The translations under genes and the position numbers were made by a program. From Acidimicrobiales bacterium (GTDB lineage Bacteria; Actinomycetota; Acidimicrobiia; Acidimicrobiales; Aldehydirespiratoraceae): a DNA stretch of 64,000 bases. The notes beneath the pieces were generated by a model. It ran no database searches, was not told the DNA's origin, and worked only from the letters and a program-made list of their open reading frames with translations. The stretch lies in assembly GCA_965207755.1 (NCBI GenBank), contig OZ242297.1, positions 2,789,816 to 2,853,815 on the forward strand, written 5' to 3'. Positions within the stretch are counted from its first letter, which is position 1, and the number at the start of each line of letters is the position of its first letter. Positions 5,202 through 59,449 of this stretch are shown piece after piece.

Positions 5202-5299
5202 CTCTCAGGACACTCCAGACATCCGGCTTCGCCGATTCGCCTCGCACGCTGAGCACAATTCTTGGGAGACGCGGCACCCCCTGTCGTTCGCGTGCTTCA

Positions 5300-12119: not shown

Positions 12120-12120
12120 G

Positions 12121-20534: not shown

Positions 20535-20580
20535 CGCCGCCCCGCCCCAACTCCGGCGGAGCCGCTCGACGGTCGAGGAT

Positions 20581-21030
20581 CGCCCACCGCCGCCCGATCC
20601 CCGACCTCGCCCCGCCCTCACGGGCCGCCCACCGTGGCCAGAGGACGGATCTGATCGCCCACCGCCGCCCGATCCCCGACCTCGCCCCGCCCTCACGGGC
20701 CGCCCACCGTGGCCAGAGGACGGATCTGATCGCCCGCCGCCGCCCGATCCCCGACCTCGCCCCGCCCTCACGGGCCGCCCACCGTGGCCAGAGGGCGGAT
20801 CTGATCGCCCGCCGCCGCCCGATCCCCGACCTCGCCCCGCCCTCACGGGCCGCCCACCGTGGCCAGAGGGCGGATCTGATCGCCCACCGCCGCCCGATCC
20901 CCGACCTCGCCCCGCCCTCACGGGCCGCCCACCGTGGCCAAGGGGCGGATCTGATCGCCCACCGCCGCCCGATCCCCGACCTCGCCCCGCCCTCACGGGC
21001 CGCCCACCGTGGCCAGAGGGCGGATCTGGT
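20581..21030. repeat. tandem repeat, 6 copies of 75 bp, spanning the comEA stop and the comEA-comEC spacer
   Basis: Units start at 20581, 20656, 20731, 20806, 20881 and 20956. The copies are nearly identical, and each contains ctcacgggccgcccaccgtggccagagg.cggatctg, which is the last 12 codons plus the stop of comEA. Confidence 0.95.
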
Positions 21031-23763: not shown

Positions 23764-23836
23764 GGGGCTATAGCTCAGTTGGTAGAGCGCTTCCATGGCA
23801 TGGAAGAGGTCAGGGGTTCAATTCCCCTTAGCTCCA
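23764..23836 (+). tRNA. tRNA-Ala (anticodon GGC)
   Basis: The cloverleaf is GGGGCTA TA GCTC AGTTGGTA GAGC G CTTCC ATGGCAT GGAAG AGGTC AGGGG TTCAATT CCCCT TAGCTCC A. The G3:U70 identity pair is present. CCA is not encoded. Confidence 0.95.
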
Positions 23837-31675: not shown

Positions 31676-31678
31676 CCC

Positions 31679-31726
31679 GAATTGGCAGCAGAAAGCACGC
31701 ATACCGTGCAAAACGCTGCCAATTCC
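31679..31726. repeat. 48-nt two-tier hairpin repeat (GAATTGGCAGC family) 3 nt after the stop codon
   Basis: The fold is GAATTGGCAGC agaaa GCACG catac CGTGC aaaac GCTGCCAATTC. Confidence 0.8.
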
Positions 31727-36300: not shown

Positions 36301-37529
36301 CAGCCGCCACCCCCCACACCGTCAAGAATCCATCCACCGCCACAATCACCGTCAACGACAACGAACCCGCTGTCACCATCACCGCCGACACCCCAGCCGT
36401 CACCGAAGGCGACAGCGCCGCGTTCACCGTCCGCGCCGACCCCGCACCCAGCGCCGACCTCACCGTGCGAGTCAACATCACCCAGACCGGCCAATACGCC
36501 GCCGCCTCCGCCCTCGGCGCCCGCAGCATCACCATCACCAAGAACACCACCACCGCCAAACTCGCCGTCGCCACCGTCGACGACACCACCGTCGAACCCG
36601 CCGGAACCGTCACCGCCACCATCAGGACCGCAGCCGCCACCCCCCACACCGTCAAGAATCCATCCACCGCCACAATCACCGTCAACGACAACGACCAGGT
36701 CGTCACCGTCACCGCCGACGCCACGGCGGTCACCGAAGGAGCCGACGCCGCCTTCACTGTCCGCGCCGACCCCGCACCCGGCAGCGACCTCACCGTCAAC
36801 ATCACCGTCACCCAGACCGGCGAATACGTCGCCGCCGCCAACCTCGGAACCCGCAACATCACCATCGCCAAAGGTGCCGCCACCGCCAGACTAGCCGTCC
36901 CGACCGTCGACGACCGGCGGGACGAACACCCCGGAACCGTCACCGTCACCGTCAACACCGCAGCCGGCTACACCCGAGGCACCCCCGACACCGCCACAAC
37001 CACAGTCAACGACAACGACCCACCGCTGTCCGGTATCATACCGGGCTACAGAGGATGCAACAGCGGCTATCTCCTGTACGAAGGCACCAGCACCAACTTC
37101 TGCGTGTTCAGCATGCCGCGGTACGGGCTGACCGCCGACGTCGACTACACGATCTACTTCGCCCAACTTGACTGGAGCACTCTTCCAATCGGGTGGACGG
37201 TGGACAGCGAGCGTCTCATTCTGCGGAATCTCAACGAGGCCGTGGCGGGCACGAGCTGCGGGTCGGGCGTCGACATCGTCATGTTGGACTGGGTGGACGG
37301 CACCTTCGGCAAGGATGCGGAATTCGATGCCGCCGTCGAGGGAGCCGGCGCCCTGCGGGGAACGGTCAAGGAGGGCAAGAGCATCCATCTGGCATGGGAC
37401 ATCAGAGTATGCAACGACTATGTGAAAGAAGGATGGGAACTGACCGCAATAAGGATCACATTCGAATCCGGAGGTCAAACCCGGACCTACAAAATCCCCA
37501 CGCTGTTGTTGGTGAGAGACAACGACTGA
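33375..37529 (+). CDS. giant surface protein: TadE-like pseudopilin N-terminus, 9 Calx-beta-like repeats and a novel Cys-containing C-terminal domain
   Basis: The N-terminus REFG|AASLELVLLVPALTALVLFVVWA fits a prepilin-type G|xxxxE site and the TadE family. Nine repeats of about 110 aa follow (VTEGD.A.FTV...LTV.V.VTQTG.Y....GARSVTI.KG.TTA.LAV.TVDD...EP.G.VTA). The last 170 aa or so are unrelated and have lower G+C. Confidence 0.8.
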   Translation: MPSSWSVGVGRWRFERLRAVPEGSGRGREFGAASLELVLLVPALTALVLFVVWAGAGGRAGLVADLAAEEAAAAAGMACDPADAAGDAQCLDSVAREVLGARPGLGELCVGGAAPSRPGTGLASRQGDAVSVGVLCRAAGAAAPLGGLAPAVDFYGEGTHVVVLPDRSVTVAAVSSGVTEGSDAEFAVTVAPPPAGALELVVTLSEDGGFVDGGYLGGHPLAVPPFPVTEAPKIDFGDGTRLDADGAVVGADDAADSVVYRFAVPTVDDGAVEPDGWVQAAVAVAAGDGYRPGAPARVAVLDDDVPTVTVAAADHDPATPGAQTAVTEGDVGDPAVYAVFTVTADQSPAEDTTIRLSVTETGDQIAAAAEGPKTVTIAKGATAATYRVPVAADDRVEASSTVTAAITADAAYAVGAPSSAPVTVLDDDVPTVTVAAADHDPATPGVQTAVTEGDATEFTVSVPSQHAPLTDLTVNLTVTQTGQYVPAAGLGARSVTIDKGATTARFAVATVDDSTPEPPGAVTATVTAAPDYAVGVPSSASVDVLDDDVPEVTVTAGADVTEADPGDAAVFAVFTVTADHAPVIDTAVSLSVTETGDQIAAAAEGEHTATIAKGATTAVLRVAVAADDRVEASSTVTSVIEPASGYSVGVPASASLQVLDDDLPEVTVAAGPDVYEGSPAKFTVAADQPPIADTAVTLTIAETGSELRSGQTGAHTVTIRKGTTTATHPVLTRADDNRVEAGSRITATVAAVTVASGYGVGVPGSAELSVKDNDRPAVSVSPGPAITEGQTAEFTVSVPIQHAPLADLTVQVDVTQTGRYAASGQTGARSATIAKGATTAKLAVATIDDTTPEPAGAITAAITSVTADADYTVTAPSTATVAVNDNEPTVTITADTPAVTEGDSAAFTVRADPAPSADLTVRVNITQTGQYAAASALGARSVTITKNTTTAKLAVATVDDTTVEPAGTVTATIRTAAATPHTVKNPSTATITVNDNEPAVTITADTPAVTEGDSAAFTVRADPAPSADLTVRVNITQTGQYAAASALGARSITITKNTTTAKLAVATVDDTTVEPAGTVTATIRTAAATPHTVKNPSTATITVNDNDQVVTVTADATAVTEGADAAFTVRADPAPGSDLTVNITVTQTGEYVAAANLGTRNITIAKGAATARLAVPTVDDRRDEHPGTVTVTVNTAAGYTRGTPDTATTTVNDNDPPLSGIIPGYRGCNSGYLLYEGTSTNFCVFSMPRYGLTADVDYTIYFAQLDWSTLPIGWTVDSERLILRNLNEAVAGTSCGSGVDIVMLDWVDGTFGKDAEFDAAVEGAGALRGTVKEGKSIHLAWDIRVCNDYVKEGWELTAIRITFESGGQTRTYKIPTLLLVRDND
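36021..36680 (+). repeat. near-identical 330-bp tandem duplication inside the giant gene (two Calx-beta-like units)
   Basis: The anchor gtcaacgaca recurs at 36021, 36351 and 36681. By eye, units 36021-36350 and 36351-36680 differ at only a few positions. Confidence 0.9.
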
Positions 37530-41302: not shown

Positions 41303-42784
41303 ATGATCCGTATGCACACCGGAGGCTACAACCGCTCGCCGTTACCATCCCCTCCGATGGCGCCCGAACCTGCACCACCGCCCGACCCGCTCGACCTCGA
41401 GGCGTTCCGCCGCAACGCCCACGCCCTGGTCGACTGGGTGGCCGACTACCTCGCCGGACTCGGCGCCAGGCCGGTCCGCGAGCCGGTGGCGCCCGGTGAG
41501 GTGCGAGCCAAGCTGCCCGACCGAGCACCCGAGGGGCCCGAGCCCTTCGACGCGGTGCTGGCCGACCTCGACCGGGTGGTGGTGCCGGGGCTGGCCCACT
41601 GGCAGCATCCCGGCTGGTTCGCCTTCTTCCCGGCCCAGACCTCGCCGCCGGCGGTGCTCGGCGAGTTGGCCGCGGCCGGCATCGGCGTGCAGGGGATGAT
41701 GTGGGCGACCTCGCCGGCGTCCACCGAGCTCGAGTCCCACATGCTCGACTGGCTGGTCGACCTGCTCGACGTGCCCCAGTCGTGGAAGACGACCGGACCC
41801 GGCGGCGGGGTGCTGCAGGCCGGCGCCTCGACCGCCACCCACACCGCCATGATGGTGGCCCGCGAGCTCTGCCGCGAGCGCACCGGGGCACCGGCCGAGC
41901 AGATGGTGGCGTACACGTCCAGCCAGGCCCACTCGTCGCTGGAGAAGGGCGCCATGCTGACGGGGTTCGGCCACCTCCGCCTGCTGGACGTCGACTCGGA
42001 CTTCGCGGCCCGGCCCGAGGCGCTGACCGGAGCGATCGAGGCCGACCGCCGCGACGGCCTGATACCGGCCTTCCTGGGCTCGAACATGGGCACCACCGGG
42101 ACCGCGGGGGTCGATCCGCTGCGCGCCCTCGGCAGGATCGCCCAGGCCGAGCAGATGTGGCACCACGTCGACGCGGCCTACGGAGGGTCGGCCATGATCT
42201 GCGAGGAGTTCCGCCACCACCACGACGGGCTGGAACTGGTCGACAGCTACACCTTCAACCCCCACAAGTGGCTGGCCACCAACCTGGAGTGCTCGGTGAT
42301 GTGGGTCGCCGACCGGCGGCCCCTGATCGACACCCTCAGCGTTACACCCCCCTACCTGCGCAACCCGGCCTCGGAGTCGGGCCTGGTGATCGACTACCGG
42401 GACTGGCACGGCCCGCTGGGGCGGCCGTTCCGGGCGCTCAAGCTGTGGTTCGTGCTGCGCGGCTTCGGCGCCGAGGGCCTGCGGCGCATGATCCGCAACC
42501 ATGTCGGTTGGGCACGCGAGCTGGCCGAGCGCGTCGACGACCACCCCCGGCTGGAGCGCATCGCGCCGGTACACTTCGCGCTGGTGTCGTTCGTACACCG
42601 CGACGGCGACGCGGCCACCGGCGCCCTGGCCGAAGCCATCAACGCCGACGGCCGGTTCTACGTCACGACCTCGGAGATCGACGGTCGGCGGTTCGTGCGG
42701 ATCTCGGTCGGCTCCACCTGGACCACCGCCGACGATGTCGAGGCCCTATGGGACCTCATCGAGGCCCGCTCCTCCGTTCTGTGA
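41303..42784 (+). CDS. PLP-dependent group II decarboxylase (aromatic-L-amino-acid/DDC-like)
   Basis: Diagnostic segments are HWQHPGWFAFFPA and the PLP-lysine motif SYTFNPHKWL. The start is possibly at ATG 41357 (MAPEPAPP). Confidence 0.85.
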   Translation: MIRMHTGGYNRSPLPSPPMAPEPAPPPDPLDLEAFRRNAHALVDWVADYLAGLGARPVREPVAPGEVRAKLPDRAPEGPEPFDAVLADLDRVVVPGLAHWQHPGWFAFFPAQTSPPAVLGELAAAGIGVQGMMWATSPASTELESHMLDWLVDLLDVPQSWKTTGPGGGVLQAGASTATHTAMMVARELCRERTGAPAEQMVAYTSSQAHSSLEKGAMLTGFGHLRLLDVDSDFAARPEALTGAIEADRRDGLIPAFLGSNMGTTGTAGVDPLRALGRIAQAEQMWHHVDAAYGGSAMICEEFRHHHDGLELVDSYTFNPHKWLATNLECSVMWVADRRPLIDTLSVTPPYLRNPASESGLVIDYRDWHGPLGRPFRALKLWFVLRGFGAEGLRRMIRNHVGWARELAERVDDHPRLERIAPVHFALVSFVHRDGDAATGALAEAINADGRFYVTTSEIDGRRFVRISVGSTWTTADDVEALWDLIEARSSVL

Positions 42785-42896
42785 GCAGATATGCCGACTG
42801 AGGCGGCTCTGTTGCGCACAGAACGCTGGGATCGAGTTCTGTGAGCAGATATGCCGACTGAGGCGGCTCTGTTGCGCACAGAACGCTGGGGGGGCT
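42777..42896. repeat. tandem repeat, 2 copies of 60 bp, starting in the last codons of the decarboxylase gene
   Basis: The sequence ttctgtgagcagatatgccgactgaggcggctctgttgcgcacagaacgctggg occurs at 42777 and 42837. Each copy contains the stem GTTCTGTG...CACAGAAC. Confidence 0.9.
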
Positions 42897-44685: not shown

Positions 44686-44960
44686 CGGTCCGCGGGACCA
44701 GCCGACACCGCCAACCGGGCCGCAGGACGCCAACCCGGCCACGACACGCACCGTCACCCCGCGGGACCAGCCGGCACCGCCAACCGGGCCGCAGGACGCC
44801 AACCCGGCCACGAGACGCACCGTCACCCCGCGGGACCAGCCGGCACCGCCAACCGGGCCACACACCGCCATCCCGGCCACGACGACACGCACCGTCACCC
44901 CGCGGGGCCGGCCGGCACCGCCAGACGGGCCGCAGGACGCCGGTACGCTGACCCCGTCCG
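44686..44960. repeat. tandem repeat, about 4 copies of 69-72 bp, in the aldolase-ACAD spacer
   Basis: The anchor cgcgggaccagcc (or ggggccggcc) recurs at 44691, 44760, 44829 and 44901. Confidence 0.9.
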
Positions 44961-44998: not shown

Positions 44999-46222
44999 AT
45001 GGACTTCGAGTTCTCCGACGACCAGAAGGCGTTCGCGGCCGAGGTGGAGGCATTCCTCGACGCCAACCACGACCCCGACGTGTTCGACCTGACCCGCGAG
45101 AACATGGCCCAGCTGGTCGACACCCCCGAGCGCCGGGCGTTCATGAAGGAGATGGGCCGGAAGGGATGGCTGGGCATCACCTGGCCCGCCGAGTACGGCG
45201 GCAGCGAGGGCGAGGGCGTCTACGAGTACCTGCTGAACGAGGCTCTGGCCGCCCGGGGCGGTCCCCAGATCGGCAAGGGGGTCGGCATCGTGGGCAAGAC
45301 GATCATCGCCCACGGCTCCGAGAAGCTGAAGGCCGAGTTCCTGCCCATGATCCTGGAGAACGACGTGGAGTTCGCGGTTGGCTACTCCGAGCCCGACGCC
45401 GGGTCCGACGCCGCCTCCATGCGGCTGCGGGCCGAGCGGCACACCGCGGAGGACGGCACCAGGGGCTGGCTGCTCAACGGCCAGAAGATCTGGACCACGT
45501 CCGCCCATTTCGCCGAGTGGTACTGGCTCGGGACCCGCACCGACCCCGACAACAAGCACATGGGCATCACCCTGATGCTGGTGCCGATGGACCAGCCCGG
45601 CATCACCGTCGACGGCATCTGGACCATGGGCGACGAGCGCACCAACTCGGTGTTCCTAGACAACGTGTTCGTGCCCGACGACTACGTGGTGGGCGAGGTC
45701 GACCACGGGTTCCGCTACATCAGCCAGGCACTCGACCTCGAACGCTTCACGATGTTCACGTTCTCGCCCATCAAGCAGCGCCTCGACCTGCTCACCGATT
45801 GGGTCAAGGACGCGGAGCGCGACGGCGAGGCGGTGCGGTCCGATCCCCGGGTGCGGGCCCGTCTCGCCAACCTGCACGCCGAGGCCGAGGTGGCGCGGGT
45901 GCTCGGCCTGAAGTTCGTGGCCGAGGCGGTGATGGTCGAGCAGGCGGTGCGCGACGGCAGGGAGGGTTTCCAGCCGCCGACGGTGGCCGCCTCGGAGTAC
46001 AAGCTCTACGCCACCGAGCTGTCCAAGCGTCTGGCCGACGCGTCCATGGACATCGCCGGGCCCGGGGCGCAGCTGCGGGTCCACACCAACGACGCCCCCA
46101 TGGACGGCCGGGCGGAGTCGACCTACCGCTTCACCGTGATCGACACCATCGGCGGCGGCTCCTCGGAGATCCAGAAGAACATCATCGCCCGCCGGGGACT
46201 CGGCCTCCCCAAGAACTTCTGA
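44999..46222 (+). CDS. acyl-CoA dehydrogenase (FadE-like)
   Basis: The protein begins MDFEFSDDQKAF and contains GWLGITWPAEYGG, GYSEPDAGSD and GGGSSEIQKNIIA. GAGGAG precedes the ATG. Confidence 0.9.
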   Translation: MDFEFSDDQKAFAAEVEAFLDANHDPDVFDLTRENMAQLVDTPERRAFMKEMGRKGWLGITWPAEYGGSEGEGVYEYLLNEALAARGGPQIGKGVGIVGKTIIAHGSEKLKAEFLPMILENDVEFAVGYSEPDAGSDAASMRLRAERHTAEDGTRGWLLNGQKIWTTSAHFAEWYWLGTRTDPDNKHMGITLMLVPMDQPGITVDGIWTMGDERTNSVFLDNVFVPDDYVVGEVDHGFRYISQALDLERFTMFTFSPIKQRLDLLTDWVKDAERDGEAVRSDPRVRARLANLHAEAEVARVLGLKFVAEAVMVEQAVRDGREGFQPPTVAASEYKLYATELSKRLADASMDIAGPGAQLRVHTNDAPMDGRAESTYRFTVIDTIGGGSSEIQKNIIARRGLGLPKNF

Positions 46223-46224
46223 GC

Positions 46225-46431
46225 GTGCAGGCCATGACGGCGACAGCCCCTGACGGGCGTCGCGGCGCGGTGAGGGGCAGCCCTCGCGCTTCCGGCGCCC
46301 GCAACGGAGTTCGCCGCGGCGCGCCGGTTCGCGCCGGCGACCGCGTCCGCACGGACGGAGTGGCCGCTACTCGCAACGGCGCTCGCCGCGGCTCGCCTGT
46401 TCGCGCCCGTCCCGGGGGCGTGGGAGCGTGA
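46225..46431 (+). repeat. intercistronic segment with 2 copies of a 72-bp repeat and a bridging small ORF
   Basis: The anchor gcaacgg recurs at 46301 and 46373. The ORF runs from GTG 46225 or ATG 46234 to TGA 46429-46431, which overlaps the GTG 46428 start of the next gene. Confidence 0.7.
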
Positions 46432-47618
46432 CGTCCTCCGAGGCGCAGGCCGCCCCGGCGGGCGCGCTCGACGGGGTCAGGGTGCTGGACCTGTCGTCGG
46501 TCGGGCCCGCGGCCCGGGCCACCAGGCTTCTGGCCGACTACGGCGCGGAGGTGGTGAAGGTCGGTCCGGTGCCGCGACGGGCCGGGGCCGCCACCGTTCC
46601 CCCCGCCTACGCCTACAGCGGCCACCGGGGCATGAGGCGGGTGCTGCTCGACCTCAAGTGCGACAGCGGGCGGGACGCCTTCCTCGACCTGGCCCGGGGC
46701 GCCGACGTGGTGGTGGAGAGCTTCCGTCCCGGCGTGGTCGACCGCCTCGGCATCGGCCACGGCGCGGTGCGGGCCGTCAATGAGGGTGTCGTCTACTGCT
46801 CCACCAGCGGCTACGGCCAGAGCGGCCCGAGGCGGAACTGGGCCGGCCACGACCTCAACTACCTGGCCGTCTCCGGCTACCTGCACTGCAGCGGACGCGA
46901 CGCCGGCGGCGTCCCCGCGCTGCCCGGCGCCACGGTGGCCGACATCGCCGCCGGCGGGATGCACGCCGCGCTGGCGGTCACGGCCGCCCTGCTGCGCCGG
47001 GAGCGCACCGGCCACGGCGAGCACCTCGACGTTTCGGTGGCCGACGGGGCGCTGGGGATGATGGCGCTGTACGCCGACGAGCACCTGGCCACCGGCGCCG
47101 AGCCCGGTCCGGGCCACTACATCCTCACCGGCCGCTATGCCTGCTACGGCGTTTACGCCTGCGCCGACGGCGAGTATCTGTCGGTGGCCGCCATCGAGCC
47201 CGCATTCTGGGCCAACCTGTGCCGTGCGCTGGGCTTCGAGCGCTACATCGACGCCCAGACCGATGACGATGCCCAGGACGAGATCCGCGCCGCTGTCTCG
47301 GCCGCACTGGAGACGGCCGACCGCGACGAGTGGGTGCGTCGACTCGGCCCCGCCGACTGCTGTGTCGCCCCGGTCAACAGAATCTCCGAAGCCGTCCGCG
47401 ACGAGCAGTACCTGGCCCGGGGTGCGGTGGTCGATGCCGAGCACCCCCAGGCAGGCGCCGTCGAGCAGATCAGCTCGCTGTGGGCCGGAACGGCAACGCC
47501 GGAGAGCCCGCACCGGCTGCCCGACCCCGGGGCCACCGACACCGCCGCGCTCCTGGCCGAGGCCGGCTACGACGAGACCCGCCTGGCCGGACTGACCGCG
47601 GAAGGAGCCATCGCGTGA
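46428..47618 (+). CDS. family III CoA-transferase (CaiB/BaiF, alpha-methylacyl-CoA-racemase-like)
   Basis: The N-terminal region is LDGVRVLDLSSVGPAARATRLLADYGAEVVKV. GHDLNYLA lies further on. Confidence 0.9.
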   Translation: MTSSEAQAAPAGALDGVRVLDLSSVGPAARATRLLADYGAEVVKVGPVPRRAGAATVPPAYAYSGHRGMRRVLLDLKCDSGRDAFLDLARGADVVVESFRPGVVDRLGIGHGAVRAVNEGVVYCSTSGYGQSGPRRNWAGHDLNYLAVSGYLHCSGRDAGGVPALPGATVADIAAGGMHAALAVTAALLRRERTGHGEHLDVSVADGALGMMALYADEHLATGAEPGPGHYILTGRYACYGVYACADGEYLSVAAIEPAFWANLCRALGFERYIDAQTDDDAQDEIRAAVSAALETADRDEWVRRLGPADCCVAPVNRISEAVRDEQYLARGAVVDAEHPQAGAVEQISSLWAGTATPESPHRLPDPGATDTAALLAEAGYDETRLAGLTAEGAIA

Positions 47619-47790
47619 TGTCCGCCGAACCGGCAAGCCCAACAGGCGGACGGCGGCGCCGAGTTGGATGCCGCCAATCTGATCGCGTGATGTCCGCCGA
47701 ACCGGCAAGCCCAACGGGCGGACGGCGGCGCCGAGTTGGATGCCGTCAATCTGATCGCGTGATGTCCGCCGAACCGGCAAGCCCAACAGA
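47615..47790 (+). repeat. tandem repeat, about 2.4 copies of 72 bp, each beginning GTGATG and so re-creating the upstream stop codon
   Basis: Units start at 47615, 47687 and 47759. The first GTGATG contains the CoA-transferase TGA (47616-47618). Confidence 0.9.
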
Positions 47791-47847
47791 CCCAAGACGG
47801 CCCCCACTCCCCCTGTTCACGGCGCCCTCGACCGCCACCCGATTCAC

Positions 47848-47896
47848 GAACTGGCAGCAGAATGCGCCCCATACGGGGCACCACGCTGCCAATTCC
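47848..47896. repeat. 49-nt two-tier hairpin repeat (variant of the GAATTGGCAGC family)
   Basis: The outer stem is GAACTGGCAGC...GCTGCCAATTC. The inner stem GCCCC-atac-GGGGC replaces GCACG/CGTGC. Confidence 0.75.
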
Positions 47897-47922
47897 CGGA
47901 GTGACGGGGAGGCGGCGACCGC

Positions 47923-48984
47923 ATGACCGGCGAACTGCCTGCCGGCATCGGCGAGCTGATCGGCCGGCCCGTGTACCCGCAGACGGCCGACTTCCCTGCC
48001 GAAATGGGCTACGGCTGGAACACGCTGGCCGCCACCGAGAACGGCAACCCGCTGTACTGGGAACCGGCCGTGGCCGGGATGGTCGCCGGGGACCGCATCC
48101 TGCCCCTCAGCACGCTGTCGCTGTGGATGCGGCCCCACCGCTGGGCGCCCGGCGCCACCACCGAGCAGGTCGCGCTCGGGGTCCACTTCGACCTCAAGGA
48201 GGGTCTGGGGCTCCCCGAGGCCATCATGAGCGACAACACGGTCGTGTTCCACGAGCCCGTGCGCCCCGGCGACGTGATCAGCCACCACCAGGTTCTGCGG
48301 TCGGTGAGCGGGCCCAAGACGACCCGGCTCGGCTCCGGACGGTTCTGGGTGATCGACGTCGAGTACCACAACCAGCACGCGACGCTGGTCGGTGTGGAGT
48401 CCTACACCGGTTTCGGCTACCGCCGGAGCGACCCGGCCCCAGCCGGGCAGCCTCGGGCGCCCCGTCCGACGGAGCCCCCGTCGCCGGACGAGGCTTCCGG
48501 CCCGCGGGCCAAGCCGGACCCCGCCCACGACCAGGTCCGGGTGGGCGACGCCCTGCCCGTGCTCACCCACGACGTGACCGCCACCACCGTCGTGCTCGGC
48601 GCCCTGGCCAGCCGCGACTGGCGGCCGATGCACCACGACTACCGCTTCGCCACCGAGCGAAACGGGGCCCGCGACATCTTCCTGAACACGCCCAACCAGC
48701 TCGCCTGGATCGAGCGGGCCGTCACCGACTGGACCGGGCCCCGCGGCCGGCTGGGGCGGGTCTCGTTCCGCATGCAGGATCCGGTCTTCCCCGGCGACAC
48801 CATGACCATCTCGTCGGTGGTCACGGCGGTGCCCGTCGACGACTCCGGCTGCGGCTGGGCCGAACTCGACCTGGTGCTGCGGGCCGGCGACCGGGTCTGC
48901 ACGACCGGGAGGGCCAAGGTGGCCCTGCCGATGTCGGCGGCCGACAATCCGTGGCAGCGCCGCGGCGAGGACTGGAACCCGTGA
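47923..48984 (+). CDS. double hot-dog-fold (MaoC-like) enoyl-CoA hydratase/dehydratase
   Basis: The N-terminal hot-dog ends FWVIDVEYHN. A linker follows, then the MaoC-type C-terminal half (RPMHHDYRFATERNGARDIFLNTPNQ...FPGDT). Confidence 0.8.
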   Translation: MTGELPAGIGELIGRPVYPQTADFPAEMGYGWNTLAATENGNPLYWEPAVAGMVAGDRILPLSTLSLWMRPHRWAPGATTEQVALGVHFDLKEGLGLPEAIMSDNTVVFHEPVRPGDVISHHQVLRSVSGPKTTRLGSGRFWVIDVEYHNQHATLVGVESYTGFGYRRSDPAPAGQPRAPRPTEPPSPDEASGPRAKPDPAHDQVRVGDALPVLTHDVTATTVVLGALASRDWRPMHHDYRFATERNGARDIFLNTPNQLAWIERAVTDWTGPRGRLGRVSFRMQDPVFPGDTMTISSVVTAVPVDDSGCGWAELDLVLRAGDRVCTTGRAKVALPMSAADNPWQRRGEDWNP

Positions 48985-49021
48985 TGCTCCAGTCCTCCGA
49001 CCAGGCTTGCGGGAGGCGTTG

Positions 49022-50167
49022 ATGCTCGACCTCGACTTCACCCAGGAACAGGAGATGCTGCGCGGCATGGTGCGCGGCCTGTGCAGCGAGCTCTCGCCGC
49101 TGGAGCGTGTGCGGGAGCTCGAGGACGACCCCGACGGCGTCCACCGGGAGCTCTGGCAGCGTTTCGGGGAGCTGGGCCTGTGCGGCCTGATGGTCCCCGA
49201 GAGCGCCGGCGGCTCCGGCATGAGCCTCCTCGACGGGGTCGTGCTCTACGAGGAGTTGGGGCGCTCGCTGGCCCCGCTGCCCCACTTCGTCAGCTGCGTG
49301 CTGTCCGCCGCGGCGATCACCGAGGCCGGGTCGCCGGCCCAGCAGGCCGAGCTGCTGGGCGGCATCGCGTCGGGCGAGACCATCGCGACCGTCGGGTGGC
49401 TGGAGCCGGGCGGGGGCTACAAGCCCCGCGGCGTGCAGCTGGCCGCCCGCGCCGACGGAGACGGCTTCGTGCTGGACGGCGCCAAGGAGCATGTCCCGTT
49501 CGCGGCGGCCGCCGACCTCGTCGTCGTGCTGGCCCGCAGCGGCGACGACGACACCGATATCGACCTGTTCGTGGTGGAGGCGGGCGCCCCGGGCCTGAGC
49601 CTCGACCAGCGGATGTCGATCTCGTCGGACACCCAGTACCGGGCCACCCTCGACGGCGTACACGTCGGTGCCGGCGCCCGCCTGGGCACCCCCGACGCTG
49701 CTGCGGGCGCCGGCTGGGAGGCCTGGCAGCGCGCCATGCACGCCGGCGCGATCCTGGCCGCGGCCCAGGCCGTCGGCGGCGCCTCGGCCGCCCTCGAGAT
49801 GACCGTCGAGTACGCCAAGGAGAGGCGCCAGTTCGACAAGGCCCTGGCCGAGTTCCAGGCCGTCTCGCACTACCTGGCCGACGCCCGCACCGCCCTCGAC
49901 GGCGCCGAACTGCTGGTGTACGAGGCGGCCTGGGCCCACAGCACGGGCCGCTCCACCGAGCGGCTGGCCCCCATGGCCAAGATGTTCGCCTGCCGCACCT
50001 ACCGGGAGATCACCGCCATGTGCCAGCAGGTGTTCGGCGGCATCGGCTTCACTGTGGAGTACGACATCCAGCTCTACTTCCGCCGAGCCAAGCAGCTCCA
50101 GCTCTCCTGGTGGGACCAGGCGACCTGCGAGGACCGCATCGCCGACGCCGTCCTGGGCGCCCGCTAA
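49022..50167 (+). CDS. acyl-CoA dehydrogenase
   Basis: The protein begins MLDLDFTQEQEMLRGMV and contains EYAKERRQFDKALAEFQAV. ATG 49022 follows GGGAGG. The ORF-track TTG at 49007 is probably too early. Confidence 0.9.
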   Translation: MLDLDFTQEQEMLRGMVRGLCSELSPLERVRELEDDPDGVHRELWQRFGELGLCGLMVPESAGGSGMSLLDGVVLYEELGRSLAPLPHFVSCVLSAAAITEAGSPAQQAELLGGIASGETIATVGWLEPGGGYKPRGVQLAARADGDGFVLDGAKEHVPFAAAADLVVVLARSGDDDTDIDLFVVEAGAPGLSLDQRMSISSDTQYRATLDGVHVGAGARLGTPDAAAGAGWEAWQRAMHAGAILAAAQAVGGASAALEMTVEYAKERRQFDKALAEFQAVSHYLADARTALDGAELLVYEAAWAHSTGRSTERLAPMAKMFACRTYREITAMCQQVFGGIGFTVEYDIQLYFRRAKQLQLSWWDQATCEDRIADAVLGAR

Positions 50168-50505
50168 GCGGCCCCGGTTGCGCCCTCGAGTGCGGCTATC
50201 CGCTCGCCGTGGTCCGCCATCGAGGTGAGCAGACGACCATGCTCCTCCAGAGTGGCCTCGATCCTGGCAAGACGACGGCCATGCTCCTCCAGAGTGGCCT
50301 CGATCCTGGTCAATCGACGGCCATGCTCCTCTTGGACGGTCTCAATCTTGGTCAATCGCTCAAGCACCTTGACCAAGATCGCCTCGTTGCGATCGAGGCG
50401 CGCGCCGAGGGATCGAATGTCCGACTTGATTACGGACAGGGAAAAGCCGAGCAGCCCCAAGATGCCCGCACCCAATACTCCGATGATCGCTTCTGCCACG
50501 GTCAT
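50164..50505 (-). CDS. small single-TM coiled-coil protein with 3 copies of a 14-aa (42-bp) repeat
   Basis: The TM segment is MTVAEAIIGVLGAGILGLLGF. The repeats are TKIETVQEEHGRRL, TRIEATLEEHGRRL and ARIEATLEEHGRLL (nt 50237-50362). GGAGGA precedes ATG 50505. G+C is lower than in the flanking sequence. Confidence 0.5.
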   Translation of the reverse strand: MTVAEAIIGVLGAGILGLLGFSLSVIKSDIRSLGARLDRNEAILVKVLERLTKIETVQEEHGRRLTRIEATLEEHGRRLARIEATLEEHGRLLTSMADHGERIAALEGATGAA

Positions 50506-50572
50506 GTCCTCCCAAGTATAGCATGTCCAACCGTCGAGGCCATTCGGCAATAGTTATATAGATCAATATAGC
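50506..50572. promoter_or_regulatory. AT-rich divergent intergenic region with a direct repeat
   Basis: This is the only strongly AT-rich stretch in the core region. TATAGCATG occurs at 50517-50525 and 50567-50575, exactly 50 bp apart, and the second copy contains the ATG of the downstream gene. Confidence 0.3.
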
Positions 50573-51689: not shown

Positions 51690-53474
51690 ATGCGACTCGC
51701 TTGTCTATTAGTGGCGGCCGCGCTGGCGGCTACGGCGTGCTCGGATGAGCCGCCCGCGGGCGACGGCCTAACCGACGAGAGCGTTCAGGCCGAGCCGGCC
51801 GCCACCGACGACGGCGCAAGCGCCGGGGCGCCCGACCAGTCGACGCCTCCGCCGGTCCCGGGGACGTTCACCGCGGTGGCGGCCGGGTTCTGGCACACCT
51901 GCGCGATCCGCTCCGACGGCCGGATCGAATGCTGGGGCGTCAACCGGGACGGGCTGCTGGACGCGCCCGTGGGTCGGTTCAAGGCGATCTCTGCCGGGCC
52001 CGGCCACAACTGCGCCATCCGCACCGACGGCGGCATCGAGTGCTGGGGCGAGGAGTTCCCAGGAATGGCCGACGCGCCCGTCGGCGAATTCGTCGCGGTG
52101 TCCGCGGGCGCCGGATACACGTGCGCGCTGCGTGACGACGGAGACGTCGACTGCTGGGGCGGTTCCGACACTCAACTCTTGACCCCGCCCGGTGGGCACT
52201 TCACCGCGGTGGCCGCGGGGCACCGTCACGCGTGCGTGCTGCGCGAGGGTGGAACGGTGCTCTGCTGGGGCGCCAACGAAGAAGGCCAGGCCGAAGGGCG
52301 CACCCAACGCTTCAGTGACATCGCCGCCGGGGCCGACCACACCTGCGGGGTGAAACTCGACGGCACCGTCGAATGCTGGGGATCCGACTACCTGGCCAAG
52401 TCCGACGCGCCCGGCGGGACCTTCACGACGCTCGCGGCCGGGGTAGACCACACGTGCGCGGTGAGCACCGGCGGCACAGCCGAGTGCTGGGGATCGGACG
52501 CCTTCGGTGCGACTCCGGCACCCGACGGCCAATTCCAGTCGGTCGCGGCCGCGGCCGACCACAGTTGCGGGCTGCGCACAGACGGCACCATCCAGTGCTG
52601 GGGCAGGCGCTTCATCGCGGGCGCCGAACCTCCCGGCGAGCAGCTTGCATCCCTGGTTGCCGGCGGCAACCACACCTGCGGGCTGCGCCCCGACGGCACC
52701 GTCGAATGCTGGGGCACAGACCTCGTGGGTCGGATGGAACCGCCCGGTGGACGCTTCGATTCGATGGCCACCGGGAACTACTTCGCCTGCGGGCTGCGCC
52801 CCGACGGCACCGTCGAATGCTGGGGATTCGACCGCTTCGGCGTGCTCGACGTCCCCGACGGAGCGTTCCATGCCGTGACGGCCGGCGTCGGCCACGCCTG
52901 CGCCCTGCGAGGCAACGGCACCGTCGAATGCTGGGGTTCCAACTCGCACGGACAGGCCGACACCCCCGCAGACACCTTCGCCGCCATCTCGGCAGGGAGC
53001 TCGCACACCTGCGGCATCCTCCTCGACACCGGTTGGGCCGAGTGCTGGGGAAACCCGTACGCGGGGAGGCTGGATGCCCCAGCGGGGGCCTTCATCGCCG
53101 TCGCAGCCGGCGGCCAGGAGCAGCCTCCTCCAGAGCGCCAACTCCGCGGCCCTCAGGAGTCCGTCGCAGCCGGTGACAGCCACACCTGCGGGCTGCGCCC
53201 CGACGGCGCCGCCGAGTGCTGGGGATCCAACTCGCACGGGCAGAGCGAGGCCCCCGCAGGCGCCTTCACGGCTGTCTCGACCGGCGTGCATTCCTGCGGC
53301 TTGCGCCCCGACGGCGCCGTCGAGTGCTGGGGAACCGACGAAGCGCCCTCCGCAGGGGAGTTCGCCGCCGTGGAGGTCGGCCAGGGCTACACCTGCGGGC
53401 TGCGTCCCGACGGCGCCGCCGAGTGCTGGGGAACGCTGCGGGCGCCGCCCGAGGGAGTGACCTACACCGGCTGA
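51690..53474 (+). CDS. RCC1-repeat (beta-propeller) lipoprotein
   Basis: The lipobox is LAATAC. About 11 repeats of the form HTCAIRSDGRIECWG follow. Confidence 0.85.
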   Translation: MRLACLLVAAALAATACSDEPPAGDGLTDESVQAEPAATDDGASAGAPDQSTPPPVPGTFTAVAAGFWHTCAIRSDGRIECWGVNRDGLLDAPVGRFKAISAGPGHNCAIRTDGGIECWGEEFPGMADAPVGEFVAVSAGAGYTCALRDDGDVDCWGGSDTQLLTPPGGHFTAVAAGHRHACVLREGGTVLCWGANEEGQAEGRTQRFSDIAAGADHTCGVKLDGTVECWGSDYLAKSDAPGGTFTTLAAGVDHTCAVSTGGTAECWGSDAFGATPAPDGQFQSVAAAADHSCGLRTDGTIQCWGRRFIAGAEPPGEQLASLVAGGNHTCGLRPDGTVECWGTDLVGRMEPPGGRFDSMATGNYFACGLRPDGTVECWGFDRFGVLDVPDGAFHAVTAGVGHACALRGNGTVECWGSNSHGQADTPADTFAAISAGSSHTCGILLDTGWAECWGNPYAGRLDAPAGAFIAVAAGGQEQPPPERQLRGPQESVAAGDSHTCGLRPDGAAECWGSNSHGQSEAPAGAFTAVSTGVHSCGLRPDGAVECWGTDEAPSAGEFAAVEVGQGYTCGLRPDGAAECWGTLRAPPEGVTYTG

Positions 53475-53480
53475 CCTTCC

Positions 53481-53600
53481 GAATTGGCAGCACAATGCAC
53501 GCCACCCGTGCATCACGCTGCCAATTCCCTGGTGGCGCCAACCGGCGCTCTCGAATTGGCAGCACAATGCACGCCATCCGTGCATCACGCTGCCAATTCC
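53481..53600. repeat. two copies of the 48-nt GAATTGGCAGC hairpin, 72 bp apart
   Basis: The copies lie at 53481-53528 and 53553-53600. Each folds as GAATTGGCAGC acaa TGCACG cca[c/t]c CGTGCA tcac GCTGCCAATTC. Confidence 0.85.
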
Positions 53601-56890: not shown

Positions 56891-59449
56891 GTGACGCAGC
56901 CGAGACCACTGTCCTCGGCTCGCAAGGTTGCAGGTGCGGTTTGGGTTGCCGTTGTTGTCGCACTCCTTGCGGGCGGCTGCGCTCAAGACGATCACAACCC
57001 AGACGCGACCCGGGCCAGGGCGACAGGCGCCGAGGGCGCCGCGTCGCCGTCCTCCACGAGCACTTCAAGACCCGTCGTGGACATGCCGAGCCGGACGGCC
57101 GCCGAGGAGACAGCCACCGGGGAGCGCGAACCCGGGTCGGCGACTGCGGTGGCGTCCCCCACTCCCTTCGAGGCCGACGACCTCTCGGAGACCGATGACG
57201 GCACTCAGATTGATGCCCCCATAGACGGACTCGACGATGAGGCTCCCCCGGAGTCTCCGGAGCCCACGAGCCCGGAGATCGCCGACCCGTTCCCATGGCT
57301 CATCCAGCGCCGCCTCGGACCCGATCCGACCGGCTGTGGATTGTCGTTCGTCGTGCCCGGGGAGAGCGTCGGACTGTCGGCCGGAGGGTTCGCTCCCCAT
57401 TCGGAGGTGAGCTTCACCGCCCGTGGGGCATCGCTCACGGGGACCGAGTTGCCCCCGCCGACGATTCCGCCGACGACAGCCGACGGCGAGGGCCTCATCG
57501 ACGTGGTGTGGACCGTCCCGGAGGCGCCGCCGGCCGGGGAGGATCCGGAGCCCAGGGCCTACATCGCCGAAGCCGTCGGCGTCGGGCGGGGCGGCGAGGA
57601 GTACGTGGCGTACATGGTGCAGCCGCTGGTGGCCTATCCGGGCACGACGATCTGCGCGCTGGCCGACGCGGCCGCCACCACCTTGGGGCAGCCGGTCCGC
57701 ATCCCGGTGCTGGACAACGACGTCGCCCCCGAGGGCGGCTGGCTGGATCCGGCGTCGGTGAGTACCCGGCCGGTCGCAGGAGGCGAACTGGCCGTAGACC
57801 CCACCGACGGGTCGCTGACGTTCACGCCCGACCCGGGCTTCGCGGGAACGGCCACGGCGACGTACGCGGTCTACGACAACTGGCAGATCGGGATGGAGGG
57901 CGAGGTCACCGTGACCGTAGACGCCGGATGCACGATCGAGATCCCCCCGGACACCAGGGAGATCCATGGCACCGAGGGCGACGACGTGATCTGCGCCGAC
58001 GATCTGGGCGACACATCCGGTTGGGATCGGAACCGGTTCCACGTCATCTACGCCCTAGGCGGCGACGACATCATCCTCGGAAGCAACGGAGTGGACTGGA
58101 TCTACACCGGCGAGGGAACCGACGTCGTGTACGGACGGGGCAGTGACGATCGGATAATCGTGTACGGCGAGGACAGGGTCTACGGCGGCTCCGGTTTCGA
58201 CACCATCTACTCGGTGGACCTCTTGATGGAGGTCTTCGACGACGATGACGGCTACCTCATCGAGTTGTCCTCGACGACCCTCTTCGAGCAACGCGCGCCC
58301 ATTGCAGCCGACGACCACCGGCATCTGAACCCGTTCGCGACGCAGGTCATCGAAGTGCTCGAGAACGACTACAGCCCCATGGACAGTCTCGATTGGGAGA
58401 CCATGTCCATCACCAAGCCTCCGACGCTCGGCTCAGCGCGGGTCGTCGACTCGCCGTGGTTCGGCAACGCCATCGAGTACGCACCCATGGGTGCCTCGGG
58501 CACCGACGAACTCTCCTATTCGATCTGCGACATCCTCTCGCGATGCACTACCGCCGAGGTTCACATCACCCTCGGCACGGACCACTGCACCATCATGGGC
58601 ACCGCGGGGCCCGACACGCTCACGGGCACGCCGGGCGACGACATCATCTGCGGGCTCGGAGGAGACGACCGGATCGACGGCCTGGGCGGCAACGACGTGA
58701 TCATCGCCGGCCCGGGCGACGACACGGTCGTGGGAGGTGCGGGCGATGACCGGATCTGGGGCGGTGACGGCGACGACACGCTCGACGGCGGCTCGGAGGA
58801 CGACATGCTCTGGGGCGGACCCGGAGACGACACCCTCAACGGGGGACCCGGCCACGACACGCTCCTTGGAGGCGACGGCGGTGACAGCCCCAACGGCGGC
58901 GAAGGAAGCGACCGTCTGTGGGGCGGTGACGGCGACGACACGCTCAATGGCGGCTCGGGCGACGACATGCTCTGGGGCGGACCCGGCTCGGACGATCTCA
59001 ACGGTGGGCCCGGCCACGACACGCTATGGGGTGATGCCAGTACAGGCGTGGGCGACGACACCATCGACGGCGGCGACGGCAACGACATAATCCTCGGTGA
59101 TTTCGGCCGCGACACGCTCATGGGCGGAGCCGGCGACGACCTGATCTGGGGAGGCTCGGGCGACGACACGATTCGCGGGGGCTCGGGCGACGACGAGATC
59201 CTGGACAACCGCGGCGACAACCGGCTGGAGGGCGGGGTCGGAGACGATCGCATACACGGCGGCAACGGCGACGACACGCTCGACGGCGGCGACGGGGACG
59301 ACTACCTCACCGGCGACGACGGCGACGACACGCTCGACGGCGGCGAGGGATCCGACTATCTCACCGGCGACGACGGCACCGACACCTGTCTCGGCGGCGA
59401 GATCACCGCTCTGTGCGAGTCCTTCAGCACCGATTCGACCGAGCCCTGA
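56891..59449 (+). CDS. RTX-like calcium-binding repeat lipoprotein with cadherin/VCBS-like modules
   Basis: The lipobox is LLAGGC. The motifs VLDNDVAPEG and VLENDYSPMD are present. The C-terminal 280 aa or so consist of more than 25 GGxGxDxhx nonapeptides. Confidence 0.85.
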   Translation: MTQPRPLSSARKVAGAVWVAVVVALLAGGCAQDDHNPDATRARATGAEGAASPSSTSTSRPVVDMPSRTAAEETATGEREPGSATAVASPTPFEADDLSETDDGTQIDAPIDGLDDEAPPESPEPTSPEIADPFPWLIQRRLGPDPTGCGLSFVVPGESVGLSAGGFAPHSEVSFTARGASLTGTELPPPTIPPTTADGEGLIDVVWTVPEAPPAGEDPEPRAYIAEAVGVGRGGEEYVAYMVQPLVAYPGTTICALADAAATTLGQPVRIPVLDNDVAPEGGWLDPASVSTRPVAGGELAVDPTDGSLTFTPDPGFAGTATATYAVYDNWQIGMEGEVTVTVDAGCTIEIPPDTREIHGTEGDDVICADDLGDTSGWDRNRFHVIYALGGDDIILGSNGVDWIYTGEGTDVVYGRGSDDRIIVYGEDRVYGGSGFDTIYSVDLLMEVFDDDDGYLIELSSTTLFEQRAPIAADDHRHLNPFATQVIEVLENDYSPMDSLDWETMSITKPPTLGSARVVDSPWFGNAIEYAPMGASGTDELSYSICDILSRCTTAEVHITLGTDHCTIMGTAGPDTLTGTPGDDIICGLGGDDRIDGLGGNDVIIAGPGDDTVVGGAGDDRIWGGDGDDTLDGGSEDDMLWGGPGDDTLNGGPGHDTLLGGDGGDSPNGGEGSDRLWGGDGDDTLNGGSGDDMLWGGPGSDDLNGGPGHDTLWGDASTGVGDDTIDGGDGNDIILGDFGRDTLMGGAGDDLIWGGSGDDTIRGGSGDDEILDNRGDNRLEGGVGDDRIHGGNGDDTLDGGDGDDYLTGDDGDDTLDGGEGSDYLTGDDGTDTCLGGEITALCESFSTDSTEP

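Follow-up and report, generated by a model that had tools for sequence, protein, structure and literature searches.

How do two neighbouring gene junctions of one operon come to be filled with tandem repeats of the same period, each crossed by an open reading frame (ORF) that runs from one gene into the next? This question is raised by a 64,000-nucleotide stretch from an Acidimicrobiales bacterium of the Aldehydirespiratoraceae (GenBank assembly GCA_965207755.1, contig OZ242297.1, positions 2,789,816 to 2,853,815), which we call the window and whose positions are counted from its first letter. It contains a co-oriented four-gene fatty-acid operon at 44999-50167 that encodes, according to Pfam, an acyl-CoA dehydrogenase (ACAD), a CoA-transferase, a MaoC-like hydratase and a second ACAD. 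Repeats with a 72-bp period lie between the first two genes (junction 1, array 1) and between the CoA-transferase and MaoC genes (junction 2, array 2). A first-pass annotation, made from the sequence letters, had compared them to mycobacterial interspersed repetitive units (MIRUs). Its observations proved largely right and its MIRU interpretation is partly supported. We estimate at about 60% the probability that both arrays are young, strain-variable minisatellites lying in split gene junctions, that array 2 is a decayed array of a dispersed palindrome and that coupling between the genes is preserved by a translational relay through the spacers.

Junction 2 is a spacer of 304 nt (47619-47922). 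The first-pass annotation had described about 2.4 units of a 72-bp repeat, each starting with GTGATG (47615, 47687 and 47759), and this is what we found, Tandem Repeats Finder (TRF) giving 2.5 copies. The two full copies are 97-100% identical, and a 29-nt core of the unit (GTGATGTCC...) occurs three times against 0.00 expected. Unit 2 starts 9 nt inside the end of the CoA-transferase gene and holds its last two codons and TGA; each copy thereby re-creates ATC GCG TGA overlapped by GTG and ATG, the old MaoC start. The remainder of the unit is a degenerate palindrome with arm-like ends (CGAACCGGCAAG ... GCCGCCAATCTG). It folds into two hairpins with z = -1.8, a value matched or beaten by 10 of 200 shuffles. 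The copy number of 2.5 was the same in two further, independent assemblies, L001 (from an ENA re-assembly of sponge metagenome data) and L002 (GCA_028819505.1), which represent essentially the same organism and show 98-99% nucleotide identity to the window. Unit 2 had no second locus in the window, in the 1.45 Mb of related DNA fetched for repeat searches or in the JGI metagenomes, which were scanned with the unit 2 core only (not unit 1) and returned no match.

For junction 1, two 72-bp units had been annotated. Here the period stood but the number did not: in the window a full unit is followed by a 36-nt partial one, 1.5 copies in all (46300-46335 and 46372-46407 are 89% identical over 36 nt, 72 nt apart; BLAST E = 7e-5), and TRF reports no array at this place in the window, even at a score of 30. 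L001 and L002, by contrast, carry 2.7 copies with 88% matches in a spacer of 277 nt instead of 205 nt. These assemblies confirm the 72-bp period of array 1 and show its copy number to be polymorphic. The comparison between strains that the annotation had suggested thus gave a variable array 1 (1.5 against 2.7 copies) and an array 2 that is constant in three assemblies. Large length differences between the window and L001/L002 sit at the junction 1 array and at the 60-bp array described below; elsewhere there are only a few small gaps. Unit 1 is not unusually structured (fold z = +0.2 to +0.7), and BLAST found no second locus for it in the window or in the 1.45 Mb of related DNA. The two units had been called unrelated to each other, and a direct comparison bore this out. 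As a source of array 1, a simple duplication spanning the junction was rejected, since the unit has no similarity to the adjacent coding ends and only the spacer edges are duplicated junction. We would rather describe array 1 as a locus-specific 72-bp repeat whose units may be gained and lost through slippage or unequal recombination.

The state of these junctions before expansion may be read from relatives. A scan of GTDB representative genomes gave 80 loci, about 45 of them with the same ACAD/CoA-transferase/MaoC/ACAD operon. In about 25 of these 45 operons the CoA-transferase and MaoC genes overlap by 4 nt (ATGA), and the distance from ACAD to CoA-transferase is mostly about 20 nt or less. 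Compact junctions are therefore the commonest and presumably the ancestral state. Long spacers, of 129 nt or more at one junction or the other, are mainly found in the clade of the window (CoA-transferase identity 77-87%), where the distance from CoA-transferase to MaoC takes values of 22, 79, 97, 145, 148, 151, 197, 219, 300, 301 and 304 nt; shorter expansions of 44-101 nt were also seen in a few distant loci. This distribution points to recent, recurrent and fast-changing insertions into junctions of the coupling type.

The edges of the spacers strengthen this picture. At junction 2 the upstream edge reads ...ATC GC(A/G) TGA with ATG or GTG at -1, which is the MaoC start of compact relatives, and in several loci the first MaoC codons follow this relic start (ATGACCGG...). 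The downstream edge carries a second CoA-transferase 3' end, resembling G-A/V-I-A-stop (GGGGCGATTGCATGA, GGGGTGATCACATGA, GGCGACCGCATGA), which leads into the working MaoC start, ATGACC. At the CoA-transferase stop itself, GCA-TGA (ATGA) is kept in many loci despite the rarity of GCA where the GC content at third codon positions (GC3) exceeds 0.9. At junction 1 relatives have TGA, 7-10 nt and GTG ACN GCN (V-T-A/T), and the upstream copy in the window has TGA, 11 nt and then ATGACGGCG, reading ATG ACG GCG ACA (M-T-A-T). ATG 46234 is thus the relic start codon of the CoA-transferase, with GTG 46225 as an alternative start in the same frame. Judged from these sequences, the expanded junctions are best described as split junctions, with extra DNA between two junction copies. 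Tandem duplication of the CoA-transferase 5' end together with its start codon was observed as well: at 5001-5090 of L004/L005, with a 72-nt period that is in-frame in L004, where the gene caller consequently output a 420-aa CoA-transferase, and at 2847-2961 of L178 it has a period of 47 nt and 2.4 copies.

A hairpin near 47848, also noted in the first-pass annotation, is real (47847-47896, RNA fold z = -3.6) and belongs to a dispersed palindrome of 49-50 nt. Its pattern has four occurrences in the window where 0.07 would be expected, and a covariance model made from 14 copies picks out these four (65-74 bits) and nothing else there. The copy pair downstream of the operon, which folds even better than its shuffles (z = -5.7 at 53474, compared with -3.6 at 47847), has an orthologous pair in L002. 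A search of the genome for further copies of the repeats had been suggested: in the window and the 1.45 Mb of related DNA, other loci were found for the 47847 hairpin, not for units 1 and 2. Altogether we count 137 palindromes in the window and 92 metagenome stretches, largely contigs of the LXNJ, LXNI and MKWU series, taken to be sponge metagenomes. Where the window has junction 2, relatives have between two and four palindromes (two in L012, three in L086). Palindrome arrays lie almost all between predicted genes (5 of 97 fall inside a crude gene call), often with a palindrome 2-20 nt from a gene end. Neighbouring copies on the same strand are 71 nt apart in 21 cases and 72 nt in 11. The annotation's rule that units come in multiples of three does not hold for the family, given these sister arrays. 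The palindromes alternate with linkers that measure 22 nt in 27 cases and 23 nt in 5; these linkers are rich in C (48%), alike within an array and different between loci. A target-site-duplication model was considered for the 22-nt linkers and rejected as a general explanation, since the outer flanks usually do not match them.

Across species whose proteins are 77-85% identical, the 11-nt arms of the palindrome are nearly invariant, whereas interiors and linkers diverge, and covariation was found in one of the 12 stem pairs. Invariant arms with almost no covariation argue for sequence recognition or recent spread rather than for a conserved RNA structure. In co-oriented gene pairs both orientations occur (30 opposite, 19 same). 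The copies contain 55 stop codons over six frames against 123 ± 9 in shuffles, a depletion that is only suggestive, as the copies are related and the null is a mononucleotide shuffle. The palindrome has no match in Rfam, and no description of it was found in the literature on this lineage and on palindromic or intergenic repeats. It is apparently an undescribed REP-like or MIRU-like repeat family of sponge-associated Acidimicrobiia (for REP, repetitive extragenic palindrome, see below).

What connects array 2 to this family is mainly its layout. The junction 2 spacer of the window (304 nt) is colinear with those of L179 (301 nt) and L178 (300 nt), which are arrays of four palindromes with a 72-nt period. 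In the window the arm-like CGAACCGGCAAG is found at 47626, 47698 and 47770 and the intact palindrome follows at 47847, at spacings of 72, 72 and 77 nt. The third of these units keeps its 5' arm and the interior cccaacagacccaagacggcccccac and runs into a linker homologous to the linkers of relatives. By a count made by eye in the alignment, it shares about 76% identity with L179 hairpin units, and it gives three 17-nt BLAST matches of 94% to their interiors and a weak in-register nhmmer match (E = 2.6). Units 1 and 2 of the array keep only the arm-like ends (...GCCGCCAATCTG), and what takes the place of the linker in them is the copied CoA-transferase end with its stop codon. We infer that array 2 is a decayed derivative of a four-unit palindrome array, the first unit of which was recently re-amplified together with its upstream flank. 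The tail of the spacer, with the Shine-Dalgarno-like sequence of the table, has an equivalent in relatives, where GGAGG or GGGGG is combined with the duplicated G-A/V-I-A-stop-like CoA-transferase end.

Both bridging ORFs were present exactly as the annotation had described them when the frames of the two spacers were scanned. Their composition, however, is not that of the operon genes. GC content at the first, second and third codon positions is 0.83/0.78/0.75 in ORF 1 and 0.68/0.72/0.64 in ORF 2, against 0.66-0.77/0.43-0.55/0.92-0.97 in the flanking genes. The four operon genes, with GC3 of 0.92-0.96 and GC2 of 0.43-0.55, have the signature of real genes in this genome. Neither ORF had a Pfam match, and ORF 2, used as a protein query, had no homologue among 5.8 billion proteins. 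Gene callers left ORF 2 uncalled in L001 and L002 and annotated equivalents of 99 aa and 102 aa in L178 and L179. Orthologous bridging ORFs show no peptide conservation, and in 71-nt arrays a single ORF passes through the repeated DNA element in a different frame from copy to copy. The frames also stay open well into the flanking genes (45166-46431 and 47330-47926), and random-phase shuffles leave the bridging frame open in 7% (junction 2) and 25% (junction 1) of cases. The repeats go far beyond what chance would give, which cannot be said of the open frames. The frames are explained by a relic start, stop-free inserted DNA and the TGA that any (A/G)TG-ACN start creates, and on this sequence evidence the bridging ORFs do not appear to be genes.

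Frames that are not genes may still serve as a relay, defined here as an ORF that runs from the relic start and ends on or at most 12 nt from the real start. Of 17 distinct expanded junction 2 spacers of at least 44 nt (13 semi-independent scored spacers plus L086, L178, L179 and L180), 14 have a relay ORF, three an in-frame extension and none neither. The chance of a relay or extension per locus was 0.14-0.7 in dinucleotide shuffles with random phase. Multiplied by hand over the 13 scored spacers this gives about 5e-5 if they are independent, and about 0.03-0.04 for the six lineages without palindrome only. At junction 1 all five scored lineages with a start codon beside the upstream stop open a relay ORF (null product by hand about 0.002). 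In the GTDB set no spacer length was a multiple of three, but a rule to this effect was dropped because L086 and L178 contradict it; these two spacers still give relay ORFs by a second TGA at -7 in the duplicated CoA-transferase end. Taken together, these sequences make relay translation plausible and lend it mild support, whereas selection for the relay is only suggested.

If it operates, the relay could work as follows. The upstream junction copy keeps the old start of the downstream gene, ATG 46234 for the CoA-transferase and GTGATG at 47615 for MaoC, and the downstream copy supplies the working Shine-Dalgarno sequence and start codon, at junction 2 along with the duplicated CoA-transferase 3' end. 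Ribosomes ending on the upstream gene would probably reinitiate at the relic start, translate the spacer, melt its hairpins on the way and terminate on top of the real start codon. An insertion would then cost little translational coupling, and such insertions could persist. The logic would be the one proposed for MIRUs, reached with different sequences.

Several observations weigh against the combination of minisatellite, decayed palindrome and relay that we favor. The covariance model and a profile hidden Markov model of the palindrome detect neither of the first two units of array 2; the link between array 2 and the palindrome rests on position and partial matches, without statistical homology, and array 1 shows no relation detectable by BLAST to any other sequence in the 1.45 Mb. 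We know of no mechanism that would fix a period of 71-72 nt with locus-specific linkers, and there was no transposase among the window ORFs scanned. Dinucleotide shuffles at fixed length keep the frame open in 24% of cases for junction 2 and in 73% for junction 1. The loci of the comparative test are not independent, and many junction 2 spacers share the stop-poor palindrome, which weakens it. About half of the expanded junction 1 relatives have no start near the upstream stop and hence no bridge (loci with an expanded junction 1 and no bridging ORF are L003, L004, L014, L016, L021, L033, L047 and L178-L180). MaoC could start without coupling, since it has a Shine-Dalgarno-like sequence of its own. 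Finally, copy numbers in short-read assemblies are possibly part-collapsed.

Some of these points feed directly into the most serious of the other explanations, namely that the arrays are purely neutral minisatellites, made by slippage or unequal recombination, and that the bridging ORFs are a by-product of 70-80% GC, leftover starts and automatic xTGA stops. The shuffles that stay open (24% and 73%) are what it predicts, and it is in line with frames open for hundreds of nt into the flanking genes, with the lacking codon-position signature, with the roughly one half of expanded junction 1 relatives that have no bridging ORF, with the Shine-Dalgarno sequence of MaoC and with 71-nt periods being commoner than 72-nt ones, unit length thus not being held to multiples of three. 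We consider this possible. It has difficulty, however, with the 17 of 17 expanded junction 2 spacers that keep a relay or in-frame extension at a per-locus null of 0.14-0.7, with the five of five scored junction 1 lineages with a start beside the upstream stop (about 0.002), with GCA-TGA retained at the CoA-transferase stop in many loci though GCA is rare, and with the stop depletion of the palindrome in all six frames. Slightly more doubtful is a role as structured RNA or DNA elements similar to REPs and bacterial interspersed mosaic elements (BIMEs). Their hairpins would stabilize the upstream part of the polycistronic mRNA, make ribosomes or RNases pause or be bound by a protein, and the number of copies would tune the expression of ACAD, CoA-transferase and MaoC relative to one another. 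While the palindrome folds far better than its shuffles (z = -3.6 and -5.7), has nearly invariant 11-nt arms between diverging interiors and linkers and lies 2-20 nt from gene ends at many loci, and while unit 2 forms two hairpins (z = -1.8), the 72-bp units are not exceptionally structured (unit 1 z = +0.2 to +0.7; unit 2 equalled or surpassed by 10 of 200 shuffles). Furthermore, covariation in one of 12 stem pairs points to sequence recognition, both orientations occur in co-oriented pairs (30 opposite, 19 same), and there is neither an Rfam family nor a terminator-like T-run.

A bolder form of the relay would make palindrome plus fixed 22-nt linker an undescribed class of translatable repeat of sponge-associated Aldehydirespiratoraceae-like Acidimicrobiia that colonizes overlapping junctions, with selected relay ORFs and copy number as a dial: the stop-poor palindrome would duplicate the junction and then amplify in 71-72-nt steps. 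Were it true, the strain-variable copy number would set, in a heritable way, how strongly the operon products are coupled in translation and in what ratio they are made; we consider it unlikely. It is very improbable that the bridging ORFs are genes for small proteins of 65 aa and 102 aa built from repeated 24-aa modules. Their start and stop codons do overlap both neighbors, as in tightly coupled operon genes, and gene callers annotated the 99-aa and 102-aa equivalents in L178 and L179. Against this stand GC3 of 0.64-0.75 and GC2 of 0.72-0.80 compared with 0.92-0.97 and 0.43-0.55 in genes, the missing Pfam matches and missing homologue in 5.8 billion proteins, the lack of peptide conservation with frame switches in 71-nt arrays, the absence of the ORF from most related operons, and peptides rich in Arg, Gly, Pro and Ala, as expected from translated GC-rich non-coding DNA. 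An assembly artefact or a degenerate CRISPR-like array is hardly credible. Short-read assemblies of metagenome-assembled genomes (MAGs) can collapse or mis-join repeats, and Rfam gives a weak match to CRISPR-DR20 at 46298-46331 (18.1 bits, E = 1.8). Array 2, however, is present in three assemblies, array 1 occurs in L001/L002 at 2.7 copies against 1.5 in the window and with distinct single-nucleotide differences, and homologous arrays stand in long-read contigs such as L179. For CRISPR-DR20 the gathering score is 42, far above this match; the "spacers" between the repeats do not differ from one another, the copies number only 1.5-2.5 and no cas genes are nearby.

How does the locus compare to described systems? 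According to two reviews (PMC3184786, PMC12548453), MIRUs (Supply et al. 1997) are units of 40-100 bp at about 40-50 loci in operon spacers, with ORFs overlapping the neighbors; they have tetranucleotide direct repeats and apparently insert at start codons, the MIRU ORF being coupled at -4. The architecture that the first-pass annotation had seen in our arrays matches in part. The host is a high-GC actinobacterium, and units within the 40-100-bp range stand in direct tandem, oriented with the genes, inside an operon at gene boundaries. Relatives have empty sites (-4 overlaps or short gaps), copy number differs between strains at junction 1, and ORFs through the units overlap the flanking stops and starts (GTGATG, GTGA, ATGA), an arrangement with which insertion is thought to be cheap for expression. 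However, each 72-bp unit is confined to its own locus in the window and the 1.45 Mb and is thus not interspersed, and the arrays share no consensus. The bridging ORFs begin at the relic start of the downstream gene and not at a start borne by the unit, and the flanking repeats are duplicated junctions of about 10-17 nt (read by eye) instead of tetranucleotides. The dispersed element associated with them is a near-perfect palindrome with locus-specific linker. The host belongs to the Acidimicrobiia, not to Mycobacterium, which makes membership of the mycobacterial MIRU family implausible; the likeness described here is one of architecture.

REPs, known from Enterobacteriaceae and Pseudomonas, are imperfect palindromes of 21-65 nt with a conserved stem and many extragenic copies; BIMEs are clusters of them in alternating orientation, with conserved linker motifs and an association with REP-associated tyrosine transposases (RAYTs). 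Only the 47847 element resembles them, as a short, GC-rich, imperfect palindrome with conserved stems and many copies, almost all between predicted genes, often in operons just after stops, singly or clustered. Unlike BIMEs, its arrays are direct and on the same strand, with a fixed period of 71-72 nt and C-rich, locus-specific linkers of 22-23 nt. No RAYT/IS200-like transposase was found among the window ORFs scanned, and the 72-bp units themselves are poor palindromes (z = -1.8 for unit 2; +0.2 to +0.7 for unit 1). Variable number tandem repeats (VNTRs), or minisatellites, single-locus arrays of a 10-100-bp unit that arise by slipped-strand mispairing, are the closest category for the arrays: head-to-tail copies are 88-100% identical, the unit is locus-specific and whole units are gained or lost between strains of 98-99% identity, which is what defines a VNTR. 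What sets the locus apart is that three adjacent operon junctions hold different arrays with the same 69-72-bp period, that this period matches that of the dispersed palindrome family, and that units hold the stop and start codons of the flanking genes. CRISPR arrays combine identical repeats with unique spacers, usually in many units and near cas genes; here the intervening segments are themselves repeated, there are 1.5-2.5 copies and the neighboring genes have no cas domains. The safest filing is as locus-specific VNTRs in split operon junctions, seeded at no fewer than one junction by a new REP- or MIRU-like family. The MIRU analogy may be apt for how the locus works, not for membership. 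In kind the locus is MIRU/REP-like; what is new is the lineage.

Table. Coordinates and properties of the features at and around the two junctions (window positions)
Feature	Position	Strand	Remarks
Single palindrome copy	31678-31726	+	2 nt past the stop of another CoA-transferase gene; convergent intergenic region
Third array, C-rich, 69/72 bp x 3.6	44690-44941	+	HpcH to ACAD spacer (313 nt), same operon; TRF
Acyl-CoA dehydrogenase (ACAD) gene	44999-46222	+	Pfam Acyl-CoA_dh_N, _M, _1; GC3 0.96
Junction 1 spacer	46223-46427	+	205 nt; GC 0.80; no frame with coding signature
Relic of ancestral ACAD/CoA-transferase junction	46223-46242	+	TGA, 11 nt, then ATG 46234 ACG GCG
Bridging ORF 1	46225-46431	+	68 aa (GTG 46225) or 65 aa (ATG 46234); TGA 46429-46431 overlaps GTG 46428
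Minisatellite 1, 72 bp	46300-46407	+	Full unit 46300-46371, 36-nt partial unit 46372-46407
Family III CoA-transferase gene (CaiB/BaiF-like)	46428-47618	+	GTG start; Pfam CoA_transf_3, E = 1e-90
Minisatellite 2, 72 bp, 2.5 copies	47610-47789	+	TRF score 346, 97% matches
Bridging ORF 2	47615-47926	+	103 aa (GTG 47615) or 102 aa (ATG 47618); TGA 47924-47926 overlaps ATG 47923
Putative decayed third hairpin unit	47770-47846	+	5' arm-like CGAACCGGCAAG and interior cccaacagacccaagacggcccccac kept; 3' arm eroded
Intact palindrome copy	47847-47896	+	CGAAYTGGCAG-N27/28-CTGCCAATTCC; covariance score 65 bits
Shine-Dalgarno-like GGGGAGG	47906-47912	+	10 nt upstream of MaoC ATG; read from sequence
MaoC-like double hot-dog hydratase gene	47923-48984	+	ATG start; Pfam FAS1_DH_region, MaoC_dehydratas
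Second ACAD gene	49007-50167	+	Pfam
Two palindrome copies, 72 nt apart	53480-53600	+	Starts 53480 and 53552; fill the spacer from RCC1-repeat gene to YceI-domain gene

The nearest named relatives of the host genome are "Candidatus Aldehydirespirator" and sponge-derived Acidimicrobiaceae MAGs, and sponge symbionts typify the lineage (PMC11706023). The window has a GC content of 70-75%. Its operon genes had been correctly called in the first-pass annotation (ACAD, CoA-transferase, MaoC), as judged from Pfam, homologue lengths and tblastn starts. The ACAD is conserved at 61-94% across the about 45 related operons. The CoA-transferase is 99% identical to an Acidimicrobiaceae MAG protein (P0001) and has thousands of relatives at 70-87%, with 396 aa as the commonest homologue length; the MaoC start is supported by tblastn alignments to relatives that begin at residue 1. 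Exact-protein look-ups gave no identical record for the CoA-transferase and MaoC proteins. Within the operon we found no promoter or terminator consensus and no terminator-like T-run. At gathering thresholds Rfam reported only tRNAs elsewhere, and over the locus two sub-threshold chance matches at E <= 10; a riboswitch or known small RNA at the locus was rejected on this result.

The third array of the operon, in front of the first ACAD gene, differs between strains too: L001 has 72 bp x 3.5 with indels, and L003 has a different array of 35 bp x 7.9 in the same place. A frame scan found no bridging ORF from it to the ACAD start. A single interspersed family behind all arrays of the window (39, 42, 60, 69/72, 72, 72 and 75 bp) was rejected, as a BLAST of every unit against the 1.45 Mb found each only at its own or the orthologous locus. 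An array of 75 bp x 6.1 (97% identical) at 20578-21032 lies among minus-strand genes between comEA (20993-21673; HHH_3/SLBB) and comEC (18750-20534; Competence). Its units each hold the comEA stop as GTGA, and the GTG frame is open through six units, in-frame with the comEC start, with a GC3 of about 0.68 by hand count; the logic is as in array 2. An array of 60 bp x 1.9 (42776-42890) occupies the convergent spacer between pyridoxal decarboxylase and enoyl-CoA hydratase genes. Its unit is a strong hairpin (GTTCTGTG...CACAGAAC, z = -2.3). Conservation in L003 is 89%, and in L001 the region is longer by some 155 nt, as estimated from alignment coordinates. An A/C-rich array of 39 bp x 5.2 (92% identical; 12097-12300) stands in a convergent intergenic region and has no notable structure. 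Between the second ACAD gene and a molybdopterin oxidoreductase gene, a small minus-strand ORF without Pfam match (50164-50550) contains 42-bp x 3 repeats, and in relatives (L003, L004, L011 and L178) this place is taken by repeats of 21, 33, 42 or 105 bp; it is either a variable repeat protein or another non-coding array.

Positions 1-6000 of the window have a lower GC content (60-62% against 70-75%) and adjoin a tRNA gene (5987-6061). They encode a ResIII/DEAD-box helicase (3177-5201, minus strand) and ORFs without Pfam match; the block is probably an acquired island, possibly related to defence. A second tRNA gene (23764-23836) is followed by a nucleotidyltransferase-domain ORF (23872-24891, minus strand) in a place where the GC3 filter called no gene. 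Three large repeat proteins are predicted, from a 1376-aa ORF at 33399-37529 that contains 3.6 copies of a 330-bp repeat and matches LapA/Calx-beta weakly and below threshold, from the RCC1-repeat protein gene at 51690-53474 and from an RTX nonapeptide/Big_9/cadherin-like protein gene at 57077-59449. Proteins of this type are typical of sponge symbionts.

In conclusion, the palindrome family and the recurrent splitting of junctions are more novel than the two arrays themselves. Between strains of 98-99% identity the arrays account for the main structural differences, and they could mark strains of uncultured sponge symbionts. Junction repeats mislead gene callers, as illustrated by the false N-terminal extension of the 420-aa protein of L004 and the false small genes of 99 aa and 102 aa in L178 and L179. 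For the question of how coupling depends on distance, natural alleles with empty junctions and with one, two, three and four units exist. If the relay reading is true, this operon would add a second, independent case of the MIRU logic from a distant class of actinobacteria, and repeats would be able to invade the tightest spots of operons because an ORF that rides along with them keeps the hand-over of the ribosome.

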